NCBI RefSeq assembly: GCF_022846255.1
Contig: NZ_AP025682.1
DNA length: 64,000 bases
Direction: 5' to 3' (one strand)
Source of the DNA: Escherichia coli
GTDB lineage: Bacteria > Pseudomonadota > Gammaproteobacteria > Enterobacterales > Enterobacteriaceae
In this document: positions 6,948 through 64,000 of the stretch, in pieces
Numbering within the stretch: the stretch's first letter is position 1
Layout: each line of letters begins with the position of its first letter
Notes under the pieces: model-generated
Database searches by the model: none
The model's input: the letters and a program-made list of their open reading frames with translations, nothing else
What the model was told of the DNA's origin: nothing
Made by a program: the position numbers and the translations under genes

Positions 6948-7862
6948 ATGGGTAAAACATTCAGTATAAAGGTCCTGTTCGGTATTTATCTTCTATTAAT
7001 TGCAGGCAAAGTTTTTGCCTTCAGTTGTAATGTCGATGGCGGGTCAAGTATTGGAGCAGGTACAACCTCTGTTTATGTTAATCTCGATCCTGTAATACAA
7101 CCGGGCCAGAATCTGGTTGTAGACTTGTCTCAGCATATAAGTTGCTGGAATGATTACGGCGGCTGGTACGACACTGATCATATAAACCTGGTACAAGGAT
7201 CAGCTTTCGCAGGCTCCCTACAGTCATATAAAGGATCACTGTACTGGAATAATGTGACCTACCCTTTCCCGTTGACGACAAATACCAACGTATTGGATAT
7301 TGGTGATAAGACACCGATGCCATTACCGTTAAAACTCTATATTACCCCAGTCGGAGCGGCTGGTGGAGTTGTCATAAAAGCAGGGGAAGTTATTGCCCGT
7401 ATTCATATGTATAAAATTGCCACGTTAGGAAGCGGAAATCCGCGTAATTTTACGTGGAATATTATTTCAAATAACAGTGTTGTTATGCCAACAGGCGGTT
7501 GCACCGTTGATAGTCGTAATGTCACCGTGAATCTCCCGGACTTTCCTGGAAGCGCAGAAATACCCCTTGGTGTATATTGCTCTAGCGAACAAAAGCTCTC
7601 ATTTTATCTTTCGGGTGCCACCACTGACAGTGCCCGACAAGTGTTTGCTAACACAGCACCAGATGCAACAAAAGCATCGGGCGTGGGTGTCTCTCTGATG
7701 CGTAATGGAAAAACACTGGCAACAGGAGAAAATGTCTCCCTGGGGACAGTAAATAAAAGCAAAGTACCTCTGGGTTTAAGCGCAACCTATGGACAAACAG
7801 GAAACAAGGTTGCAGCCGGAGCCGTCCAGTCAGTCATTGGTGTCACTTTTATCTATGAATAA
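6948..7862 (+). CDS. ydeQ: Fimbrial tip adhesin (FimH-like two-domain adhesin)
   Basis: 304 aa with signal peptide; last gene of operon; length matches K-12 ydeQ. Confidence 0.85.
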
Positions 7863-7934
7863 TTGTGATTTTGACATTAGTCTATGCGCTCCATTCACGA
7901 AAATTGCGCGGATAATTATTTTGTGAAGGCTATT

Positions 7935-7952
7935 ATCCTACACTTGTAAGAA
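7935..7952 (+). promoter_or_regulatory. EvgA box upstream of ydeP
   Basis: aTCCTACA-CT-TGTAAGAA matches the EvgA inverted-repeat consensus TTCYTACA-N2-TGTRGAA. Confidence 0.6.
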
Positions 7953-8051
7953 AATCCGCGCACAATTGAAGCCAGAGTCTTATTTTTTATATTGAGAATT
8001 ATGTTAATTTAAACCCTATGAGAGATGATGCTTAACTTATCGTATTTATAC

Positions 8052-8110
8052 TACTCTATTATTTAACGATAATAGAGTAAAAATAGTAAGAGAGTAGTCC
8101 CCTACTCTTA
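8052..8110 (+). repeat. Perfect 11-bp inverted repeat (tactctattat-ttaacg-ataatagagta) plus further TACTCT/AGAGTA copies
   Basis: Read directly in the ydeQ-ydeP intergenic region; four copies of the hexamer in alternating orientation. Confidence 0.5.
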
Positions 8111-8200
8111 TATATCCATGTTGACGATAAACCCTATGTATATACTGTGCATCATCGCTATTACAAATCCTAATAATTCATTTCCACACAGGATAAGCAG

Positions 8201-10480
8201 ATGAAGAAAAAAATTGAATCCTACCAGGGAGCTGCCGGTGGTTGGGGTGCTGTTAAATCCGTAGCGAATGCAGTACGTAAGCAGATGGATATACGCCAGG
8301 ATGTTATTGCCATGTTTGACATGAATAAGCCAGAGGGCTTTGACTGTCCGGGATGTGCATGGCCAGATCCTAAGCACAGTGCGTCATTCGACATTTGTGA
8401 AAACGGCGCAAAAGCAATCGCCTGGGAAGCCACGGATAAGCAGGTAAATGCCTCTTTCTTTGCTGAGAATACGGTTCAATCATTACTTACCTGGGGAGAT
8501 CACGAGCTTGAGGCTGCGGGACGTCTCACTCAGCCTTTGAAATATGATGACGTCAGCGACTGTTACAAGCTATTAAGCTGGCAACAAGCTTTCGACGAAA
8601 TTGGCGAACGCCTTCAAAGCTATAGTGATCCCAATCAGGTTGAATTCTATACTTCGGGCCGCACTTCCAATGAAGCTGCCTTTCTTTATCAGCTTTTTGC
8701 CCGTGAATACGGGAGCAATAACTTCCCCGACTGCTCCAACATGTGCCATGAACCGACCAGTGTGGGTTTGGCAGCGAGTATCGGTGTAGGTAAAGGGACC
8801 GTGTTGCTGGAAGACTTTGAGAAATGCGATTTAGTCATTTGCATTGGGCATAACCCTGGTACAAACCACCCTCGCATGTTGACTTCGTTGCGCGCTTTAG
8901 TGAAACGGGGAGCGAAAATGATCGCCATCAATCCTCTACAGGAACGTGGCCTGGAGCGATTTACCGCACCGCAAAACCCGTTTGAAATGCTGACGAACTC
9001 TGAGACTCAGTTGGCCAGTGCCTACTACAACGTGCGCATTGGTGGTGATATGGCGTTGCTCAAGGGGATGATGCGCCTGTTAATTGAGCGCGATGATGCT
9101 GCAAGCGCCGCAGGTCGGCCCTCATTGCTGGATGACGAATTTATTCAAACGCATACCGTCGGCTTTGACGAGCTACGCCGTGACGTGCTCAATTCCGAGT
9201 GGAAAGATATCGAACGTATTTCTGGATTAAGTCAGACTCAAATCGCCGAACTGGCTGATGCATATGCCGCTGCCGAACGCACCATTATCTGTTACGGAAT
9301 GGGGATCACTCAGCACGAACATGGTACCCAGAATGTACAGCAACTGGTCAATCTGCTGTTGATGAAAGGTAACATTGGCAAGCCTGGTGCGGGTATCTGC
9401 CCACTACGAGGTCACTCTAATGTACAGGGCGACCGAACCGTCGGTATCACCGAGAAACCGTCTGCAGAGTTTCTGGCTCGCCTGGGTGAGCGCTATGGTT
9501 TCACCCCACCTCATGCACCTGGACATGCTGCAATTGCCAGCATGCAAGCAATATGTACGGGGCAGGCTCGCGCATTGATCTGCATGGGGGGCAACTTTGC
9601 ACTGGCAATGCCAGATCGGGAAGCGAGCGCTGTACCGTTAACGCAATTAGATCTGGCGGTACACGTTGCCACTAAGCTTAACCGCTCTCATCTGCTGACC
9701 GCACGGCATAGCTATATTCTGCCGGTTCTGGGACGTAGCGAGATTGACATGCAAAAAAGCGGTGCGCAGGCGGTAACCGTTGAAGATTCAATGTCGATGA
9801 TTCATGCCTCGCGTGGTGTGTTAAAACCCGCCGGTGTAATGCTGAAATCAGAGTGTGCAGTGGTCGCGGGAATCGCGCAAGCAGCACTACCCCAGAGCGT
9901 GGTAGCCTGGGAGTATCTGGTGGAAGATTATGATCGCATTCGCAATGACATTGAAGCTGTGCTGCCAGAGTTTGCCGACTATAACCAGCGCATCCGTCAT
10001 CCTGGTGGTTTTCACCTGATAAACGCAGCAGCTGAAAGGCGCTGGATGACGTCGTCAGGTAAGGCTAATTTCATTACCAGTAAAGGGCTGTTAGAAGATC
10101 CCTCTTCAGCGTTTAACAGTAAGCTGGTCATGGCGACAGTACGCAGTCACGATCAGTACAACACGACGATTTATGGTATGGATGATCGCTATCGAGGGGT
10201 ATTCGGTCAACGAGATGTGGTCTTTATGAGTGCTAAACAAGCTAAAATTTGCCGTGTAAAAAACGGCGAAAGAGTTAATCTTATTGCACTCACGCCAGAC
10301 GGTAAACGTAGCTCACGCCGCATGGATAGATTAAAAGTGGTCATTTACCCTATGGCTGACCGCTCACTGGTGACCTATTTTCCAGAATCGAATCACATGC
10401 TAACACTTGATAACCACGATCCATTAAGTGGCATTCCTGGCTATAAAAGTATTCCGGTTGAATTAGAACCATCAAATTAA
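8201..10480 (+). CDS. ydeP: Acid-resistance molybdopterin oxidoreductase (formate dehydrogenase-like, FdhF family)
   Basis: 759-aa ORF matching YdeP length and sequence; no in-frame TGA. Confidence 0.92.
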
Positions 10481-11842: not shown

Positions 11843-12163
11843 AGGTGATATATTTCTTGAAATAAATAAGTGACAGCCATCACATATTTATGCATTTGCA
11901 TAACCCGTTGCATGATTATTTATGATCTCAATTCGGTATTTTGTCGGTAAAATTCAATAATTTGTTAAATATCAATAGATTAGTTGTTTATCAACGAGAA
12001 TTTACTTAGTAGAACAGAAAGTAATGTCAACAGTTTATGGACTGTTATTTCTCTTTTTTTAGCTAAATCTGCTATCTATTTATGTGACTAACTTCACTTA
12101 CATTAACTTATTTCTCTTCGTAAAATTACTTTGGAATTAAGTACAATAAGAAGAGGAACATTT

Positions 12164-13846
12164 ATGAAGTCTGCATTAAAGAAAAGTGTCGTAAGTACCT
12201 CGATATCTTTGATACTGGCATCTGGTATGGCTGCATTTGCTGCTCATGCGGCAGATGATGTAAAGCTGAAAGCAACCAAAACAAACGTTGCTTTCTCAGA
12301 CTTTACGCCGACTGAATACAGTACCAAAGGAAAGCCAAATATTATCGTACTGACCATGGATGATCTTGGTTATGGACAACTTCCTTTTGATAAGGGATCT
12401 TTTGACCCAAAAACAATGGAAAATCGTGAAGTTGTCGATACCTACAAAATAGGGATAGATAAAGCCATTGAAGCTGCGCAAAAATCAACGCCGACGCTCC
12501 TTTCATTAATGGATGAAGGCGTACGTTTTACTAACGGCTATGTGGCGCACGGTGTTTCCGGCCCCTCCCGCGCCGCAATAATGACCGGTCGAGCGCCCGC
12601 CCGCTTTGGTGTCTATTCCAATACCGATGCTCAGGATGGTATTCCGCTAACAGAAACTTTCTTGCCTGAATTATTCCAGAATCATGGTTATTACACTGCA
12701 GCAGTAGGTAAATGGCACTTGTCAAAAATCAGTAATGTGCCGGTACCGGAAGATAAACAAACGCGTGACTATCATGACAACTTCACCACATTTTCTGCGG
12801 AAGAATGGCAACCTCAAAACCGTGGCTTTGATTACTTTATGGGATTCCACGCTGCAGGAACGGCATATTACAACTCCCCTTCACTGTTCAAAAACCGTGA
12901 ACGCGTCCCCGCAAAAGGTTATATCAGCGATCAGTTAACCGATGAGGCAATTGGCGTTGTTGATCGTGCCAAAACACTTGACCAGCCTTTTATGCTTTAC
13001 CTGGCTTATAATGCTCCGCACCTGCCAAATGATAATCCTGCACCGGAGCAATATCAGAAGCAATTTAATACCGGTAGTCAAACAGCAGATAACTACTACG
13101 CTTCCGTTTATTCTGTTGATCAGGGTGTAAAACGCATTCTCGAACAACTGAAGAAAAACGGACAGTATGACAATACTATTATTCTCTTTACCTCCGATAA
13201 TGGTGCGGTTATCGATGGTCCTCTGCCGCTGAACGGGGCGCAAAAAGGCTATAAGAGTCAGACCTATCCTGGCGGTACTCACACCCCAATGTTTATATGG
13301 TGGAAAGGAAAACTTCAACCCGGTAATTATGACAAGCTGATTTCCGCAATGGATTTCTACCCGACAGCTCTTGATGCAGCCGATATCAGCATTCCAAAAG
13401 ACCTTAAGCTGGATGGCGTATCCTTGCTGCCGTGGTTGCAAGATAAGAAACAAGGCGAGCCACATAAAAATCTGACCTGGATAACCTCTTATTCTCACTG
13501 GTTTGATGAAGAGAATATTCCCTTCTGGGATAATTACCACAAATTTGTCCGCCATCAGTCAGACGATTACCCGCATAACCCCAACACCGAGGACTTAAGC
13601 CAATTCTCTTATACGGTGAGAAATAACGATTATTCGCTTGTCTATACAGTAGAAAACAATCAGTTAGGTCTATACAAACTGACGGATCTACAGCAAAAAG
13701 ATAACATTGCCGCCGCCAATCCGCAGGTCGTTAAAGAGATGCAAGGCGTGGTAAGAGAGTTTATCGACAGCAGCCAACCACCACTTAGCGAGGTAAATCA
13801 GGAGAAGTTTAACAATATCAAGAAAGCACTAAGCGAAGCGAAATAA
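12164..13846 (+). CDS. ydeN: Ser-type sulfatase (periplasmic)
   Basis: 560 aa with signal peptide; sulfatase signature S-x-P-x-R seen as VSGPSRAAIMTGR. Confidence 0.9.
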   Translation: MKSALKKSVVSTSISLILASGMAAFAAHAADDVKLKATKTNVAFSDFTPTEYSTKGKPNIIVLTMDDLGYGQLPFDKGSFDPKTMENREVVDTYKIGIDKAIEAAQKSTPTLLSLMDEGVRFTNGYVAHGVSGPSRAAIMTGRAPARFGVYSNTDAQDGIPLTETFLPELFQNHGYYTAAVGKWHLSKISNVPVPEDKQTRDYHDNFTTFSAEEWQPQNRGFDYFMGFHAAGTAYYNSPSLFKNRERVPAKGYISDQLTDEAIGVVDRAKTLDQPFMLYLAYNAPHLPNDNPAPEQYQKQFNTGSQTADNYYASVYSVDQGVKRILEQLKKNGQYDNTIILFTSDNGAVIDGPLPLNGAQKGYKSQTYPGGTHTPMFIWWKGKLQPGNYDKLISAMDFYPTALDAADISIPKDLKLDGVSLLPWLQDKKQGEPHKNLTWITSYSHWFDEENIPFWDNYHKFVRHQSDDYPHNPNTEDLSQFSYTVRNNDYSLVYTVENNQLGLYKLTDLQQKDNIAAANPQVVKEMQGVVREFIDSSQPPLSEVNQEKFNNIKKALSEAK

Positions 13847-13858
13847 CTAAACCTTCAT

Positions 13859-13886
13859 GCGGCGGATTTTTCCGCCGCCTTATTGA
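13859..13886 (+). terminator. Stem-loop between ydeN and ydeM (terminator or attenuator)
   Basis: gcggcggatttttccgccgcc hairpin; weak T-tract. Confidence 0.45.
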
Positions 13887-13897
13887 GCGAGATAGCG

Positions 13898-15055
13898 ATG
13901 CACGTTACAGCCAAGCCCTCCAGTTTTCAATGTAATCTCAAATGTGATTACTGTTTTTACCTTGAAAAAGAGTCGCAGTTTACTCATGAAAAATGGATGG
14001 ATGACAGCACTCTGAAAGAGTTCATCAAACAATATATCGCAGCGTCTGGCAATCAGGTCTATTTTACCTGGCAAGGCGGTGAACCCACTCTGGCTGGCCT
14101 GGATTTTTTCCGTAAAGTTATTCACTATCAACAACGCTATGCAGGCCAAAAACGTATTTTTAATGCATTACAAACGAATGGCATTTTATTGAATAATGAA
14201 TGGTGTGCCTTTCTCAAAGAACATGAGTTTCTGGTTGGTATCTCGATCGATGGACCCCAAGAACTACATGACCGCTACAGACGCAGTAATTCAGGTAACG
14301 GTACTTTTGCAAAAGTGATAGCAGCCATCGAGCGTCTGAAATCATATCAAATAGAGTTTAATACGTTAACTGTCATTAATAACATTAATGTCCATTACCC
14401 TCTTGAGGTTTATCATTTTTTAAAATCTATCGGCAGTAAACATATGCAATTTATCGAATTGCTCGAAACCGGGACGCCGAATATTGATTTCAGTGGTCAT
14501 AGTGAGAACACATTCCGTATCATTGATTTTTCTGTGCCTCCCACGGCTTATGGCAAGTTTATGTCAACCATTTTTATGCGATGGGTTAAAAACGATGTGG
14601 GTGAAATTTTCATCCGTCAGTTTGAAAGCTTTGTCAGCCGTTTTTTGGGGAATGGGCATACCAGTTGTATTTTCCAGGAGTCCTGCAAGGATAATCTGGT
14701 TGTTGAAAGTAATGGAGACATTTACGAATGCGACCATTTTGTCTATCCACAGTACAAAATTGGAAACATTAATAAATCGGAACTCAAAACGATGAACAGT
14801 GTACAACTGACAGCGCAAAAAAAACGGATTTCAGCCAAATGTCAGCAATGTGTATATAAACCTATCTGCAATGGTGGTTGCCCTAAGCATCGTATTACTA
14901 AAGTAAACAATGAGACTGTTTCCTATTTTTGCGAAGGTTATAAAATCCTTTTTTCAACCATGGTACCTTATATGAACGCCATGGTGGAGTTAGCTAAGAA
15001 CAGAGTACCGCTTTACCACATTATGGATGTTGCAAAACAAATGGAGAATAATTAA
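13898..15055 (+). CDS. ydeM: Radical-SAM anaerobic sulfatase-maturating enzyme homologue
   Basis: CxxxCxxC radical-SAM motif ([10 protein letters not shown]) and C-terminal Cys clusters; ~385 aa. Confidence 0.9.
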
Positions 15056-57908: not shown

Positions 57909-58136
57909 TTACATGCTGTAACCGGGTTTCTTTATCAAAGCCTCCATTTGGGGCTCGACTTCGGCATCCCAGATAGCTTGCCAAGATTCTGGTTGAATCT
58001 GCTGTAGAGAAATGCTTATCGAGCTATCTTTACTGTTCAGATGGCGAATAATAACGTCGGTAATATCTGCAGCAAGTGCTGCTTTTTGTTGTTCGTCCAG
58101 TTCACGCGGAAAACATTTAATGTCTATGTGCGGCAT
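57909..58136 (-). CDS. pptA: Tautomerase (4-oxalocrotonate tautomerase family)
   Basis: 75 aa from [18 protein letters not shown]… with N-terminal Pro after Met. Confidence 0.88.
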
Positions 58137-58441
58137 GATTGTGCTCCTTTTGAAAGATGTCAGTAAAATTAACACACGTTGTGAATGTCGTGTGTCCGGT
58201 AATGCGTTTTTACGGCAATAATGCCTACTTGAAATTGTACATATTTGTACTACACACTTTTAAATAAAGCGCCAATGAAAACGTTAACTTGCAGAATATA
58301 TTCTTCGCCAACATGCCATTAAGAAAACATCAAGTTCCCGGCTTGCCAATTTGTTAACGCCCATTATAGTTATTCTTGCCCTCACTAAAAATTTTCATCC
58401 GTAATTACCCCCAATAAAAATCCATTCTGGAGACGCTTAAG

Positions 58442-60418
58442 ATGCAGCTTAATCATATCGTTAAAAGTCTGCTAATAACGGGATTATTCACCACCAGTTC
58501 TTTACCTCTCCTCGCGGCGGAAGCTCCTAAAGACGCCACCGCAGCCACGCAACAAGCAAACAATTTACTCTACAACCAGTTGCCGTTTGCCGATAACACT
58601 GACTTTACTGATGCCCATAAAGGTTTTATTGCCCCTATCCCTCAAGACGTGATTAAGGGCGAACAAGGGAATGTTATCTGGGATCCACAACATTACGCTT
58701 TTATCAAAGAAGGCGATAAAGCCCCTGATACGGTGAATCCGAGTTTATGGCGTCAGGCGCAACTGATAAATATCAGCGGGTTATTCGAAGTAACTGAAGG
58801 TGTCTATCAGATTCGCAATCTCGATCTATCAAATATGACCATCATTGAAGGCAAAGAGGGTATTACCGTCGTTGATCCCCTTGTTTCAGCAGAAACAGCC
58901 AAAGTGGGTATGGATCTCTATTACAAAAATCGCGGCAAAAAACCGGTAGTGGCGGTTATCTATACACACAGTCATGTCGATCACTACGGTGGTGTTCGTG
59001 GCGTAATTGATGAAGCTGACGTTAAATCAGGCAAAGTTAAAATCTATGCGCCAGCCGGATTTTTGGAGGAAGCCGTTTCCGAAAACATCATGGCTGGCAA
59101 TGTTATGAGCCGACGAGCCAGTTATATGTATGGCAACTTATTGAAACCTGATGTTAAAGGCCAGGTGGGGGCTGGACTGGGAACGACTACTTCAGCAGGA
59201 ACAGTCACGTTGATTGCTCCTACTAACTACATCACCAAAACCGGACAAATAGAAACTATTGACGGGTTGACTTATGATTTCCTGATGGCGCCAGGTTCTG
59301 AAGCGCCTTCTGAAATGCTGTGGTTTATTGAAGAAAAGAAACTGATCGAAACCGCTGAAGATGTCACGCACACCCTTCATAACACCTATTCGCTGCGTGG
59401 GGCTAAAATTCGCCAACCGCTGCCGTGGTCAAAATATATTAATGAAGCTCTCAATTTGTGGGGTGATAAAGCCGAGATTATTCTCGCTCAACATCACTGG
59501 CCAACCTGGGGCAACGATAACGTGGTCAAACTGCTTAAAAGCCAGCGTGATTTGTATCGTTACATCAATGATCAAACTCTGCGCATGGCTAATCAAGGGA
59601 TGACCCGTGATGAAATTGCCGCAAACTTTAAACTGCCCTCTTCACTGGCTAACACCTGGGCGAATCGCGGCTATTACGGTTCGGTAAGTCATGACGTGAA
59701 AGCAACTTACGTGCTTTATCTCGGCTGGTTTGATGGTAACCCCGCGACGCTTGATGAACTGCCGCCAGAAGAAGGCGCAAAAAAATTCGTCGAGTATATG
59801 GGCGGTGCTGATGCCATTTTACAGAAAGCCAAACAGGATTATGACCAGGGTAATTTCCGCTGGGTTGCCCAAGTTGTTAGTAAGGTGGTGTTTGCCGATC
59901 CAAACAACCAGGCAGCGAGAGATCTGGAAGCTGATGCGCTTGAGCAGTTAGGCTATCAGGCTGAATCTGGGCCGTGGCGTAATTTCTATCTCACTGGTGC
60001 ACAGGAATTGCGTAATGGCGTACAAAAATTACCAACACCAAATACTGCCAGCCCAGACACCGTGCGTGCGATGACGCCGGAGATGTTCTTTGATTATCTT
60101 GCCGTCCATATTAATGGTGAGAAAGCGGCAGATGCCAAAACCGTGTTGAATTTCGATTTTGGTGAAGATGGCGGCACCTATAAAGTGGAGCTTGAAAATG
60201 GTGTTCTCAATCATACCGCTGGTGTAGAGGCTTCGGATGCTGATGCCACTATCACTCTGTCTCGTGATGTATTGAACAAAATTGTACTGAAAGAAGAGAC
60301 GCTGAAAGAAGCCACGGCCAAAGGAGATGTCAAAATTACTGGCAATGCGGAAAAACTCAACGAGCTGTTAGGTTATATGGATAATTTTGAATTTTGGTTC
60401 AATATAGTGACACCATAA
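58442..60418 (+). CDS. Secreted alkyl/aryl-sulfatase of the metallo-beta-lactamase fold (SdsA1/YjcS-like)
   Basis: 658 aa; signal peptide (…TTSSLPLLAAEAP); MBL zinc motif THSHVDHYGG; not at this position in K-12 as far as I recall. Confidence 0.8.
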   Translation: MQLNHIVKSLLITGLFTTSSLPLLAAEAPKDATAATQQANNLLYNQLPFADNTDFTDAHKGFIAPIPQDVIKGEQGNVIWDPQHYAFIKEGDKAPDTVNPSLWRQAQLINISGLFEVTEGVYQIRNLDLSNMTIIEGKEGITVVDPLVSAETAKVGMDLYYKNRGKKPVVAVIYTHSHVDHYGGVRGVIDEADVKSGKVKIYAPAGFLEEAVSENIMAGNVMSRRASYMYGNLLKPDVKGQVGAGLGTTTSAGTVTLIAPTNYITKTGQIETIDGLTYDFLMAPGSEAPSEMLWFIEEKKLIETAEDVTHTLHNTYSLRGAKIRQPLPWSKYINEALNLWGDKAEIILAQHHWPTWGNDNVVKLLKSQRDLYRYINDQTLRMANQGMTRDEIAANFKLPSSLANTWANRGYYGSVSHDVKATYVLYLGWFDGNPATLDELPPEEGAKKFVEYMGGADAILQKAKQDYDQGNFRWVAQVVSKVVFADPNNQAARDLEADALEQLGYQAESGPWRNFYLTGAQELRNGVQKLPTPNTASPDTVRAMTPEMFFDYLAVHINGEKAADAKTVLNFDFGEDGGTYKVELENGVLNHTAGVEASDADATITLSRDVLNKIVLKEETLKEATAKGDVKITGNAEKLNELLGYMDNFEFWFNIVTP

Positions 60419-60432
60419 ATTTACTGCATACC

Positions 60433-60456
60433 GGGCAGGTATCCTGCCCTTTTTTG
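60433..60456 (+). terminator. Rho-independent terminator after the alkylsulfatase gene
   Basis: gggcagg-tat-cctgccc followed by tttttt. Confidence 0.75.
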
Positions 60457-60464
60457 GTTAAAAA

Positions 60465-61562
60465 ATGGCTGAACGAAGAAAAACGCATCACTCATGGAAA
60501 ACCCGCCGCGATATGGTTATTCGCGGCATGACGATTAGTTTGCCATGGTTTGCTTTTATCAATGTCAGTTTTGCATTGATAATTTTGCTGCGCCGTGTTC
60601 TGTTTAATGACCTTACTCCACCCTGGTTAAATGAAAAAAGCCTTATACATTCTATTGATATATCTGCAACGGGTATTCTGCTGATTTGCAGTGGTTTACT
60701 ACTCATCCCTCGGCAAAAAACATTACCTATCCAGGTGCTATTAGTTGCCCTGAGCCTGCTATGGTCATGGTGTAGTTATCACTTTATTGCGTACTGGACG
60801 CTGCAGTTTGCTTATCCACTATGTGTATTATTAATGCTTAGTGGCGTTGTCGCACTTTATTTCCATACCCCATCATTGCTCGCATTTGTCATTCCCTTAT
60901 GGTTCACCACTCCAATAGCGAGTCTTATGCTTAATCAACAGATCAATATTCATTTTGCTGTTGTATGGTGTATTTTTTCACTGGCGCTATATGGTGGGCG
61001 ACTCATTTTGTTACGTTGGTTTGAAGAAGCATGGGTACAAAACAGTTATAACAACCAGTTAATTAATCGCCTTGATGCATTAGCACATCGCGATCCTTTA
61101 ACTGGGATAGCAAACCGACGTGCAATGAACAGTATCTTACACGACGCGATGGATAACGGCGGGTCATTTGCTCTTATTATGCTGGATGTCGATTTTTTTA
61201 AACGTTACAACGACACTTACGGGCATCCTGCTGGGGATCGTTGTCTAATACAAGTTGCCGACGCTCTACAGCGTTCAACTCGCCAGTCGGAGGATGTTGT
61301 TGTCCGTTATGGTGGCGAAGAGTTTGCCATCATACTTTTTAATGCAACATTGCCGGAAGCAGAGACGGTAGCAGCCAGAGTGAAGCAAGAACTTAAACTG
61401 GCAGCTATCCCACATCAGGCATCTGCTGTTAATGCATTCGTTACGGTTAGTCAGGGGATTACCTGTTCTGCTCCCGCAAAAACGGCTGAACAAATTATTT
61501 CAGATGCCGACGCTGCGTTATACCGGGCGAAAGAAAGTGGGCGAAATCGATGGGCTTTATAA
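60465..61562 (+). CDS. Membrane-anchored diguanylate cyclase (multi-TM N-terminal domain + GGDEF domain)
   Basis: ~200 aa hydrophobic N-terminus with 5-6 TM segments, then GGDEF hallmarks: DPLTGIANRR, RYGGEEF, ADAALYRAKESGRNR; AT-rich; start codon uncertain. Confidence 0.8.
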   Translation: MAERRKTHHSWKTRRDMVIRGMTISLPWFAFINVSFALIILLRRVLFNDLTPPWLNEKSLIHSIDISATGILLICSGLLLIPRQKTLPIQVLLVALSLLWSWCSYHFIAYWTLQFAYPLCVLLMLSGVVALYFHTPSLLAFVIPLWFTTPIASLMLNQQINIHFAVVWCIFSLALYGGRLILLRWFEEAWVQNSYNNQLINRLDALAHRDPLTGIANRRAMNSILHDAMDNGGSFALIMLDVDFFKRYNDTYGHPAGDRCLIQVADALQRSTRQSEDVVVRYGGEEFAIILFNATLPEAETVAARVKQELKLAAIPHQASAVNAFVTVSQGITCSAPAKTAEQIISDADAALYRAKESGRNRWAL

Positions 61563-61635
61563 GCATTAGGGGACTGGACAGATTACGTCTCTCCTCGCTT
61601 AACAAGGGCTGACGGAGGGTAATAATTGTCTATAG

Positions 61636-62187
61636 CTATCTTCTTAGCGATGTCTTTCTGGTATCACATTGGATCGGTGCAATTATTTTTCCTTTAATAC
61701 CCATTATGTTAAGAAATTCAGAACCAGCTGTAATCTCATTGTTTTTTTCATTCGTCTTGATCTTCCAAGGAATCTGACTGTGCATTATTGAGAACACACT
61801 AATAACGTGAATCGCTCCCTTGCGACGACTCTTGTCATAAGAGTACCGGAGCGTTTTTCCATCAATTGCAATGACGTCTTTATCATCTGAAGAATGGCAG
61901 TCAAGCATCCAGTTAATAAAGCACTCATGAAATTTTTCAGGACTGATACAGGATACAACTCTGGCAATGGTATCGTGAACAGGAATACCATTATCAAAAT
62001 CACCATATTGCTTCAAAAAATCGAGATGTGTTTCCCCAAAATCCTCTATATCTTCCCAGCCTTCTGCACCCGAAATAACGACACAAATAGTCAACAGTAG
62101 AATATCCGATAATTTATGCTCCACTTTCCAGGCTTGTCTGTAATCGGGGATAATAGAAATATGTTCCATCAATTTTTTAAGTTCCAT
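61636..62187 (-). mobile_element. ISAs1-family (H-repeat, YdcC/YhhI-like) transposase, 5' fragment only (about codons 1-190, frameshifted near its end)
   Basis: [63 protein letters not shown]… is the H-repeat protein N-terminus as I recall it; frame breaks after …IKGKII and similarity ends about 75 bp before the DGC stop. Confidence 0.8.
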
Positions 62188-62360
62188 TTTGTTCTCCTTA
62201 ATTATGTAAAGAGTATTTGATCATGTATAAGCAATAAAAAACAGCTTTAGGTAATGAGGAATATCTCAATTTTTAAACATAAAATGCGAATTATTTAGTA
62301 CAAAAAAGCAGCGTTACGTGATCTTTCCATGGAAAAGAGAGTAATACACTGATTTTTAAC

Positions 62361-62797: not shown

Positions 62798-63100
62798 CTA
62801 AAAAGGTAATAATCCTCTAATAGGAGAAAATTTTGTAATATCAATACCTTGTAATTTAAAGTAATTAAAAGCATCTTCTATATTGGAAAACGCACTAATT
62901 TCTTCAGTTGCATAATCTTCGAACACTTCCATTTTATTTTCTGGTATTTTGAAAAAATAGGTATTGTATTTTTCATCCTGTTTTTTAATGGCATATTGGA
63001 AAAAATAACTTTCACCATTTATTTCCTTTATCTCATCAAAACCTCTAACCTTACCATTCTCTATAGCAACAATTAATTTTTCAATAGACAAATCAACCAT
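62798..63100 (-). CDS. Small acidic protein, candidate immunity protein
   Basis: 100 aa, D/E-rich; start overlaps the stop of the upstream basic ORF by 8 bp; AT-rich codon usage. Confidence 0.5.
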   Translation of the reverse strand: MVDLSIEKLIVAIENGKVRGFDEIKEINGESYFFQYAIKKQDEKYNTYFFKIPENKMEVFEDYATEEISAFSNIEDAFNYFKLQGIDITKFSPIRGLLPF

Positions 63101-63440
63101 CTATATCTATCCTCACCATTGTCCCATCAGAACGTTTAATATTTATATGAGGCAAAGAACCATGCCCTGTGCCTTTATGGTCATCATGACCATATACACG
63201 ACCAGTATTAGAATCAATAGGGTAATCTTTCCTATAACGGACAGTACCATCTCTTTTCTTAAATTGTTCCATCTTATGTTTTTTTCTAATACCGGCGGCA
63301 TCCTGCGAACTGATCCCTCTTACTTTTTGAGCATCAGGAAAGGCCTCCATCAATAAATCATGGGCTTCCTGTTTTGATTTAACTGTGACAACGGTTCCTT
63401 GAGGCCCCAGGGCAAGATTACGAAAGCCCGCTCCCCGCAA
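63093..63440 (-). CDS. Small basic His-rich protein, candidate orphan toxin domain (possibly HNH/EndoVII-type nuclease tip)
   Basis: 115 aa, K/R-rich with [21 protein letters not shown]; no Rhs DPxGL or CdiA VENN junction visible; its start overlaps the ISAs1 transposase stop, so the N-terminal part may not be genuine. Confidence 0.45.
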
Positions 63441-64000
63441 GGACTGACGCCAGATAGTTTCTGTCCATGGCTGCTTTTCGCATCTTACGTCTTAACCCTG
63501 CCTTGAATACCTTATCATTCGTCAAAATATTAATAGCGATGTGCCGTATCCCTGAAAATAATTCTGCTGCATTTCCTCTTCTTATTTTGCAGTCGTCTTC
63601 ATTCATTACCACGTCCAGACGCCAGTGCAGCTTATTCTCCACGTGCCAGTGGTTTCGGATTGCTGTGGCGAACTTCTCTGCGGTTAAATCAGCAGAACTG
63701 ATATAATATCTGACCGTCATTTCTGGCTATTTCTTTTGTTCTGCTATTATGGACCGAAAGGAGACTGCCACGCATAATTTCTTCAGTCCTTTCCATTCAA
63801 ACGTGAAATCAATAAGTTCATCAGGGACATCGCAAACAATATGAAGACGGATTTCTTCTCTGCCGTGACTTTTTTCACTAATTGCGTAACTGTCATGCTC
63901 TGGATTATTCAATTCTTTCAGCGGAAATTTTTCCTCGAAGGCTTTATTTAGCCGCCCCTGGTTTCCTTTTACAGCGAATAAATAATCACCTCCCTGTTTT
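63418..64000 (-). mobile_element. ISAs1-family (H-repeat) transposase, 3' portion, interrupted by an in-frame TAG; continues beyond the window
   Basis: Reverse-strand translation from the window edge reads [43 protein letters not shown]…AEQKK-(TAG at 63727..63729)[45 protein letters not shown]…. Confidence 0.8.

Follow-up and report, generated by a model that had tools for sequence, protein, structure and literature searches.

Class III sulfatases carry Glu in place of the His/Cys ligands of true beta-lactamases (PMC4207315, PMC5426288), and their metal site has been described both as the motif THxHxDHxGG-102-E-18-E-44-H (PMC4207315) and by the ligands of the SdsAP structure (PMC5426288); the mechanism of the class has likewise been set out (PMC3920027). 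SDS is hydrolysed by SdsAP, SdsA1, YjcS and YraS (PMC6107682, PMC5426288, PMC4207315), the activity of YjcS being reported in PMC6107682, which cites Liang et al. 2014. In SdsAP, residues Y246 and G263 are needed for SDS hydrolysis, and Pisa1 has Ser and Phe at these positions (PMC5426288). YraS of Y. ruckeri degrades the detergent, yet it does not enable growth on SDS and does not make cells resistant to it (PMC4207315).

Within the 64,000-nucleotide stretch of E. coli DNA analysed here (the window), an open reading frame on the plus strand (58442-60418) begins with ATG, is preceded by GGAG 9 nt upstream, and encodes a protein of 658 residues, which RefSeq already names alkyl/aryl-sulfatase. 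Judged by its sequence, this gene is a real, intact, zinc-dependent alkylsulfatase of the well-known SdsA1/SdsAP/Pisa1/YjcS class. The protein has the three-domain architecture of class III, consisting of (i) Lactamase_B (PF00753, E 4e-19); (ii) the alkylsulfatase dimerisation domain Alkyl_sulf_dimr at residues 388-526 (PF14863, E 5e-63; 59603-60019, plus strand); and (iii) the SCP2-like C-terminal domain Alkyl_sulf_C at residues 534-658 (PF14864, E 1e-44; SCP2, E 4e-7; 60041-60415, plus strand), all three Pfam scores lying far above the gathering cut-offs. The same Pfam scan gave no match to PF00884, the formylglycine-type Sulfatase domain, and an NCBIfam scan returned no specific model but just weak, sub-threshold MBL matches. 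Full-length matches (residues 26-658, E = 0 to 1e-189) were obtained to the structures 7TL5, 4NUR, 4PDX, 2YHE and 2CFU, and comparison with other Escherichia alleles gave a dN/dS of 0.05-0.07, indicating purifying selection. The enzyme itself is an ordinary one, a further member of a class already known from crystal structures and biochemical work.

The first-pass annotation of the window had singled out an HxHxDH motif and had made its family call depend on the MBL metal ligands. The motif is present as HSHVDH at residues 176-181 (58967-58984, plus strand; H176, H178, D180 and H181), and alignment to the ligands listed for SdsAP (PMC5426288) showed that all seven are retained (H176, H178, D180, H181, E287, E306 and H351). 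The longer class motif was also matched with exact spacing (T175-G184, E287, E306, H351). Of the two zinc ions, one is assigned to H176/H178/E287/E306 and the other to D180/H181/E306/H351. By analogy with Pisa1 and SdsA1, they would activate a water molecule that attacks an alkyl sulfate at its ester carbon, giving an alcohol and inorganic sulfate; room for the alkyl chain would be provided by the dimerisation domain together with the SCP2-like C-terminal domain.

The N-terminus, MQLNHIVKSLLITGLFTTSSLPLLA followed by AEAP, has the features of a Sec signal peptide (residues 1-25; 58442-58516, plus strand): an n-region whose single basic residue is K8, then a hydrophobic stretch (residues 9-24) and a small residue in position -1, with predicted cleavage after LLA and before AE. 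Although this call was made heuristically, by eye and by alignment, the alignment to the crystallised mature SdsAP construct begins at residue 26 and the mature constructs of the homologues align from residues 26-29 onward, so that we infer export to the periplasm by Sec. The initial description of the product as a secreted, 658-residue alkylsulfatase with the MBL fold, akin to SdsA1 and YjcS, therefore agrees with the Pfam domains, the zinc ligands and the predicted export signal.

On its left, the locus is anchored by the tautomerase gene pptA (57909-58136, minus strand; Pfam Tautomerase, and so annotated by RefSeq in locus L001, which is 99.9% identical), which diverges from the sulfatase gene. 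The intergenic region between them (58137-58441) contains a candidate sigma-70-like promoter at 58343-58370 (TTGCCA-16-TATAGT, a consensus match only) and the GGAG at 58429-58432. Downstream of the stop codon, the terminator that had been noted for the gene was found at 60433-60457 (plus strand) as an intrinsic-terminator-like hairpin of 7 bp, 6 of them GC (GGGCAGG-TAT-CCTGCCC), followed by TTTTTT; the spacer containing it folds at about -13.9 kcal/mol, and the other genera also have a GC-rich hairpin here, though with another sequence. Next to it lies a gene for a MASE5-GGDEF diguanylate cyclase (60465-61562, plus strand), and the distance from the terminator to the start of this gene is too short for a separate promoter. 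We consider the two genes to be putatively co-transcribed. In this strain the right edge of the module is a truncated ISAs1 (H-repeat) copy (61637-62328, minus strand), of which only the N-terminal half is left (Pfam DDE_Tnp_1_assoc; alignment to intact ISAs1 copies), and the 3' part of a second copy, also found by alignment, runs from 63407 to 64000 (minus strand) and continues past the end of the window. The neighbours are thus those originally described: pptA, a GGDEF cyclase and an ISAs1 fragment.

The first-pass annotation had further remarked that two different sulfatase chemistries sit within 50 kb. The window does contain ydeN (12131-13846), a Ser-type sulfatase with a Sulfatase domain and the sequence S-G-P-S-R, and the adjoining ydeM (13883-15055; Radical_SAM and SPASM). 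This proximity has no demonstrated significance: ydeN and ydeM are core genes of the K-12 type at a distance of 44 kb, and a core sulfatase of the MBL type, YjcS, is present in E. coli in any case; a functional link of ydeN/ydeM to the alkylsulfatase was rejected on account of the distance, the unrelated chemistry and maturation, and the core status of ydeN/ydeM.

The cyclase comprises 365 residues when read from the ATG at 60465 rather than from the RefSeq start at 60513, and the N-terminal extension thus gained is conserved. It matches PF17178 (MASE5) at 5e-44 and PF00990 (GGDEF) at 1e-48, and its A-site, GGEEF, is intact at residue 283; the sequence in this region, RQSEDVVVRYGGEEF, shows no canonical RxxD I-site five residues before the A-site. 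Such a site marks cyclases under product inhibition, and belonging to the family does not depend on it. We know of no signal established for MASE5. The protein may be the one called DgcY in the nomenclature of Hengge; searching the literature for DgcY and for MASE5 turned up unrelated papers only. An assignment of MASE5 as the sensor of K-12 DgcF (YneF) was dropped because BLASTP aligned the GGDEF domains only, at 28% identity. Identity with DgcX of EAEC/O104:H4 was rejected as well: both are accessory E. coli GGDEF cyclases with an N-terminal membrane sensor domain, but DgcX has MASE4 and is encoded beside lambdoid prophages, at attB or elsewhere (PMC4287979, PMC10459773), whereas the cyclase of the window has MASE5 and lies at pptA-yncG.

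Among 5,426 complete E. coli genomes, the sulfatase was found in 439, the cyclase in 436, and both in about 438, the pair being nearly always chromosomal and in single copy. The sulfatase is therefore accessory, being carried by about 8% of the complete genomes, and not a core gene syntenic throughout the species, and the co-occurrence with the cyclase that the first-pass annotation had suggested examining proved to be the more interesting part of its proposal. Its description of the gene as extra and inserted, however, probably has the direction backwards.

On a reading of that kind, the sulfatase and cyclase would be a recent horizontal acquisition beside pptA, perhaps brought by the ISAs1/Rhs element. 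The low frequency of the pair is in keeping with this, as are the ISAs1 and Rhs sequences that adjoin it in this strain and its G+C content (about 0.41-0.49 in the two genes versus 0.51-0.55 in the flanks), although the latter also fits a foreign origin at some earlier time. The boundaries of ISAs1 next to the locus tell otherwise, falling at four or more distinct breakpoints across genomes. In window-equivalent positions, these are 58225 in K-12 and in L004, and 58369 in L003, both inside the pptA-sulfatase intergenic region, L003 also keeping a piece of the 3' part of the sulfatase reading frame (60297-60363, 67 nt); 58511 in L002, where the first 23 sulfatase codons remain; and 61459 in L006, where ISAs1 lies inside the cyclase gene and truncates it. 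In a further 88 genomes the sulfatase reading frame is reduced to its first 62-70 nt. Some sites without the pair thus retain sulfatase fragments, from the 5' or the 3' end, beside ISAs1, while strain WP2-W18-ESBL-08 has the order pptA-sulfatase-DGC-yncG without any mobile DNA. The neighbourhood is moreover shared with other species: in Citrobacter spp. the order is nhoA-yddH-sulfatase-pptA, E. whittamii is arranged like E. coli, and a metagenomic Escherichia-like contig has yddH-DGC-yncG. Integrase, tRNA and direct repeats are all absent from the flanks of the pair, and the dS of 0.08-0.18 among sulfatase alleles is what is expected of old, vertically inherited DNA. With reading frame fragments at empty sites, an occupied site free of IS sequences, and synteny to Citrobacter and E. 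whittamii, the locus does not look like a horizontally inserted islet; the scars already largely refute a recent insertion, which we regard as very unlikely. Scars and synteny together instead suggest an ancestral module that was repeatedly lost, the sulfatase and cyclase probably being old residents of the pptA-yncG interval that most E. coli have lost. The RhsE/ISAs1 element would have entered this interval and deletions would have spread outward from it, removing the module in most E. coli. The locus would then be a clear example of RhsE/ISAs1 eroding neighbouring genes, with a breakpoint series graded across E. coli lineages that corrects the intuitive reading as an island insertion.

As to what the enzyme acts on, residues Y230 and G247 align to Y246 and G263 of SdsAP, and since this pair is conserved, primary medium- or long-chain alkyl sulfates, e.g., SDS, are the likeliest substrates; for the E. 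coli protein the argument consists of these two residues and 69% identity to SdsAP. Cleavage of an SDS-like substrate would supply the cell with assimilable sulfate and yield a fatty alcohol besides. A natural substrate of another kind is conceivable but rather unlikely; candidates are secondary alkyl sulfates, which Pisa1 cleaves, aryl sulfates, and sulfated lipids, steroids or bile acids of host or plant origin encountered in the gut. It would suit the RefSeq name alkyl/aryl-sulfatase, the existence of a sec-alkyl enzyme in the family (PMC3920027), the fact that the carriers of the gene are gut Enterobacteriaceae, and the man-made nature of SDS, with which YraS brings no fitness benefit (PMC4207315); yet the Tyr/Gly pair is of the primary type found in SdsAP and SdsA1, not the Ser/Phe of Pisa1 (PMC5426288), and SdsAP, the nearest assayed relative, cleaves SDS. 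Because YraS provides neither growth on SDS nor resistance to it, the physiological role of the sulfatase must be considered uncertain. A cyclase of this cluster adjoins the sulfatase in 13 of 77 fetched sulfatase loci, these being the best-scoring relatives rather than a random sample, and all five of the cyclases scanned from the 13 paired loci are MASE5-GGDEF proteins. The pairing extends over at least seven genera, four gene orientations and several flanking contexts. The two genes stand in tandem in Escherichia, Atlantibacter, Enterobacter, Lelliottia, Leclercia and Pseudenterobacter, and in reversed tandem order in Pantoea rodasii and an Enterobacter sp.; they converge in Serratia proteamaculans and diverge in Salmonella enterica (context taken from protein P0080).

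This recurrence hints at functional coupling between the two gene products. In its strongest form, the sulfatase and the MASE5-GGDEF cyclase would be one functional unit, an enterobacterial 'sense and respond' pair in which the membrane domain MASE5 detects, at the membrane or in the periplasm, an alkyl sulfate or its fatty-alcohol product and raises c-di-GMP. Besides the varied arrangements of the pair, the near-perfect co-occurrence in E. coli and the lack of space for a promoter of the cyclase's own speak for such a unit, and P. aeruginosa offers a precedent, as its cells respond to SDS by c-di-GMP-mediated aggregation that depends on SiaD (PMC4768041, PMC6107682). However, the pairing is not obligatory, as the sulfatase occurs alone in Citrobacter and in Leclercia L051 and L053 (which have the same tynA-feaB context) and the cyclase alone in Hafnia paralvei and Pantoea agglomerans; a terminator lies between the two genes; and part of the adjacency is explained by shared ancestry. 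A literature search on alkyl sulfatase and diguanylate cyclase found no paper linking the two. We consider a dedicated unit of this kind unlikely, but were it real, exposure to detergents or alkyl sulfates would lead to aggregation and biofilm formation, an enterobacterial counterpart of the SDS-induced, SiaD-dependent aggregation of Pseudomonas, and surfactant exposure might thereby be connected with biofilm signalling in Enterobacteriaceae. The pairing in any case offers a concrete and cheaply testable candidate signal for MASE5, namely alkyl sulfates or fatty alcohols. Taken as a whole, the explanation that we hold with good, though not complete, confidence is that of a periplasmic, binuclear-zinc alkylsulfatase, encoded by a paralogue of yjcS that has long occupied the pptA-yncG interval together with the cyclase and has been lost from most E. 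coli.

Comparison with the known enzymes places the protein as follows. E. coli YjcS (PDB 4PDX) shares its class III architecture and ligands, but the identity is just 49.2%. As we take yjcS to be a core E. coli gene at a different locus, whereas the present gene lies at pptA-yncG, by narZYWV, the window sulfatase is a paralogue of yjcS and not an allele or an ortholog of it. SdsA1 of P. aeruginosa (PDB 2CFU) and Pisa1 (PDB 2YHE), the founding structures of the class, are also matched over their full length (E 1e-189 to 1e-192) and have the same metal site, but both are more distant, and Pisa1 favours secondary alkyl sulfates (PMC5426288). The highest identity, 79.8%, is to PDB 7TL5, a 'Lactamase_B domain-containing protein' of the enterobacterial paralogue group B with the same fold and motifs, for which we found no published function; it belongs to a sister group (Enterobacter/Klebsiella/Kluyvera type), whose genes adjoin a CRP-like winged-helix regulator and a FadL/TodX outer-membrane channel but no cyclase. 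SdsAP (PSdsA) of Pseudomonas sp. S9 (PDB 4NUR) differs in host and genomic context, a cyclase partner being described for the E. coli locus and none for SdsAP, but it resembles the E. coli protein in its three domains, seven zinc ligands and Tyr/Gly pair, with 69.4% identity over the whole mature protein, and export is common to both (PMC5426288), as a prediction in the case of the E. coli enzyme.

The sulfatase gene occupies positions 58442-60418 (+ strand), where an ATG-initiated ORF of 658 codons is preceded by GGAG 9 nt 5' of the start codon. The first-pass annotation had described a secreted 658-aa protein of the SdsA1/YjcS alkylsulfatase type with an HxHxDH motif, followed by its own terminator and lying between pptA and an ISAs1 remnant beside a GGDEF gene, and each of these elements was recovered. 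Residues 176-181 read HSHVDH; Pfam detects Lactamase_B (E 4e-19), Alkyl_sulf_dimr (E 5e-63) and the SCP2-like Alkyl_sulf_C (E 1e-44), the domain trio that defines MBL-fold alkylsulfatases; and the N-terminus (MQLNHIVKSLLITGLFTTSSLPLLA, followed by AEAPKD) resembles a Sec signal in its charge, its hydrophobic core and the small residue at -1, the mature crystallised form of SdsAP aligning from residue 26 onward. A terminator-like hairpin (60433-60457; 7 bp, 6 of them GC pairs, then TTTTTT) begins 14 nt past the stop codon. Upstream, pptA (57909-58136, - strand) is divergently transcribed; downstream, the GGDEF gene is followed by a truncated ISAs1 copy. Purifying selection on the gene is strong, with a dN/dS of 0.05-0.07 against three other Escherichia alleles. 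All sequence-level tests for class III alkylsulfatases were passed. We predict with high confidence that it encodes a functional, exported member of this class, and with moderate confidence that primary alkyl sulfates are its substrate.

Among 5,426 complete E. coli genomes, surveyed at a threshold of at least 80% coverage, the sulfatase query was found in 439, the cyclase query in 436, and a 3.5-kb query spanning both genes in 438. Matches are single-copy and chromosomal, except at one place on a record classed as 'plasmid'. Sulfatase and cyclase thus form a tightly linked accessory pair, present in about 8% of complete E. coli genomes, and the sulfatase is not core to the species. In strain MSB1_4I (genome match H51, NZ_LR898874.1, 2484268-2486625), the sulfatase gene is interrupted by IS1A, an additional and independent route of inactivation.

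The annotation had further held that the sulfatase was inserted, and the G+C of the sulfatase and cyclase, which is below that of the flanks, would fit a recent insertion of the pair next to pptA. Lower G+C could, however, stem from older transfer or family composition and does not rescue recent insertion, and genomes lacking the pair favour the opposite: some of them keep fragments of the sulfatase ORF beside ISAs1, which insertion into a previously empty site does not account for. In strain WP2-W18-ESBL-08, pptA, sulfatase, cyclase, yncG and ansP are consecutive and free of mobile DNA; in K-12, the pptA-yncG interval is occupied by ydcC (ISAs1), yncI', ydcD, rhsE' and yncH. Moreover, ISAs1 ends at differing positions among genomes without an intact pair. 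The breakpoint at window-equivalent 58225 in K-12 and EC11 leaves only the upstream region, that at 58369 in F9792 spares the upstream region and also 67 nt from the 3' end of the sulfatase gene (60297-60363), that at 58511 in IMT16316 leaves the first 23 sulfatase codons, and that at 61459 in L1PEag1 leaves the sulfatase whole with the cyclase cut short; in 88 further genomes, nothing but the opening 62-70 nt of the sulfatase ORF is left. In the window strain, the ISAs1 copy adjoining the cyclase is itself truncated (61637-62328), and homology to the IS-free arrangement ends at 61554, 8 nt 5' of the cyclase stop codon. Gene order outside E. coli agrees, with nhoA-yddH-sulfatase-pptA found in six Citrobacter species and the E. 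coli order in E. whittamii.

The evidence therefore favours a pair that was left over rather than inserted. In the most economical history, the pair would already have been in place before the RhsE/ISAs1 element arrived, and deletions beginning at ISAs1 would then have taken it away to varying extents. We thus correct the insertion account to that of a relic eroded by ISAs1/Rhs, a favoured reading that draws on scars and synteny rather than phylogenetic mapping. Metagenomic Escherichia-like contigs (L089-L091, carrying protein P0008) show the locus in a third state: narZYWV-nhoA-yddH is followed directly by a MASE5-GGDEF gene of 65% identity and then by yncG, pptA and the sulfatase both being missing. 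Comparison of window 58442-61553 with 7266-10378 of the WP2-W18-ESBL-08 locus (L005) gave a dS of 0.083 for the sulfatase and 0.008 for the adjoining cyclase, which points to a recombination breakpoint within the two-gene module. Two further features were observed nearby: 82 nt (61555-61636) match neither the IS-free locus nor the truncated ISAs1, and two small overlapping ORFs (62798-63440, - strand; 100 and 115 aa), without a Pfam match, lie between two ISAs1 pieces and may represent an orphan Rhs toxin tip with the matching immunity gene.

The partner cyclase joins a MASE5 membrane domain to a GGDEF domain whose GGEEF motif is intact; a canonical RxxD I-site is absent from its sequence. It is not DgcX, which is a prophage-linked MASE4 protein (PMC4287979, PMC10459773), and beyond the GGDEF domain no relation to K-12 DgcF was detectable. 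RefSeq places its start at ATG 60513 (349 aa), but an alternative ATG at 60465 adds 16 codons encoding an (S/T)W..R..MV motif; since this motif is conserved in Lelliottia, Pantoea and Atlantibacter orthologues, ATG 60465 is probably the true start. Because it sits 8 nt past the T-run of the sulfatase terminator, and the 1.2 kb 5' of it showed no sigma-70-like site on the + strand, the cyclase probably relies for its expression on transcripts that start at the sulfatase promoter and read through.

A genome-collection scan of species-representative genomes returned 346 relatives, of which the best-scoring 80, rather than a random sample, yielded 77 distinct loci. In 13 of these 77, a cyclase of the same cluster directly adjoins the sulfatase, and all five of the neighbouring cyclases scanned with Pfam are MASE5-GGDEF proteins; two look-ups from the cyclase side added Leclercia adecarboxylata and Salmonella enterica. 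The pair is tandem with the sulfatase first in Escherichia, Atlantibacter, Enterobacter, Lelliottia, Leclercia and Pseudenterobacter, tandem with the cyclase first in Pantoea rodasii and Enterobacter sp. CC120223-11, convergent in Serratia proteamaculans and divergent in S. enterica. Its surroundings also vary: pptA and yncG in Escherichia, a usp/SMR pair and ttcA-dbpA in Salmonella, and tynA and feaB in the Enterobacter group. In eight loci of Enterobacter, Lelliottia, Leclercia and Pseudenterobacter the sulfatase, whether paired with the cyclase or alone, has the amine oxidase gene tynA on one side and the phenylethylamine-pathway genes feaB/feaR on the other. A GC-rich hairpin directly follows the sulfatase stop codon in all tandem loci, with stem sequences that vary by genus and T-runs of varying quality, and appears to be a positionally conserved terminator or attenuator. 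In the sulfatase tree, genes with a linked cyclase are dispersed within the group containing the E. coli gene; Citrobacter and two Leclercia loci in the tynA-feaB context (L051, L053) have the sulfatase without the cyclase, and Hafnia paralvei and Pantoea agglomerans the reverse. By informal judgement the adjacency is far above random gene placement, and shared ancestry accounts for part of it. A search of one literature library found no paper connecting the alkylsulfatase and cyclase genes; SDS-induced, SiaD-dependent aggregation in P. aeruginosa is a precedent for surfactant-to-c-di-GMP signalling (PMC4768041, PMC6107682). The recurrent pairing offers a lead that is modest yet open to testing, the enzyme itself being ordinary.

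The annotation had also pointed to ydeN and its radical-SAM partner ydeM, which were located at 12131-15055. YdeN has a Sulfatase domain with the Ser-type formylglycine motif S-G-P-S-R, and YdeM, encoded directly 3', has Radical_SAM and SPASM domains. That two sulfatase chemistries lie within 50 kb is true, but nothing indicates that this is meaningful; both are already in the E. coli core genome. YdeN and the alkylsulfatase are unrelated proteins.

The PDB matches span the full mature length. An unnamed 'Lactamase_B domain-containing protein' (PDB 7TL5, 79.8% identity) belongs to a sister group (L032, L064-L077 and similar loci) whose members, likewise enterobacterial alkylsulfatases, are about 79% identical to ours. 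Sister-group genes are regularly flanked not by a cyclase but by a CRP-like winged-helix regulator (HTH_46), and also by a small lipoprotein-like ORF and a FadL/TodX-family outer-membrane channel for hydrophobic compounds, a neighbourhood that supports periplasmic action on hydrophobic substrates. SdsAP of Pseudomonas sp. S9 (PDB 4NUR) is 69.4% identical and E. coli YjcS (PDB 4PDX) 49.2%, the latter a paralogue rather than an orthologue; SdsA1 (PDB 2CFU) matches at E about 1e-189 and Pisa1 (PDB 2YHE / 4AV7) at E about 1e-190 to 1e-192. Transferred through alignment (chain numbering +25), the SdsAP zinc ligands His192, His194, Asp196, His197, Glu303, Glu322 and His367 (PMC5426288) are all kept, as H176, H178, D180, H181, E287, E306 and H351, as are Tyr246 and Gly263, which SdsAP requires for SDS hydrolysis (PMC5426288), as Y230 and G247. 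Their spacing is exactly that of THxHxDHxGG-102-E-18-(A)E-44-H, the motif published for the class (PMC4207315). In Pisa1, a binuclear zinc centre activates water for attack on the ester carbon with C-O cleavage, the departing sulfate being protonated by a histidine (PMC3920027). Activity on SDS or on primary alkyl sulfates has been measured for SdsA, SdsA1, SdsAP, YjcS and YraS among others, and secondary alkyl sulfates are the preferred substrates of Pisa1 (PMC6107682, PMC3920027). The sulfatase is an uncharacterised member of this known enzyme class, and its RefSeq label is already correct.
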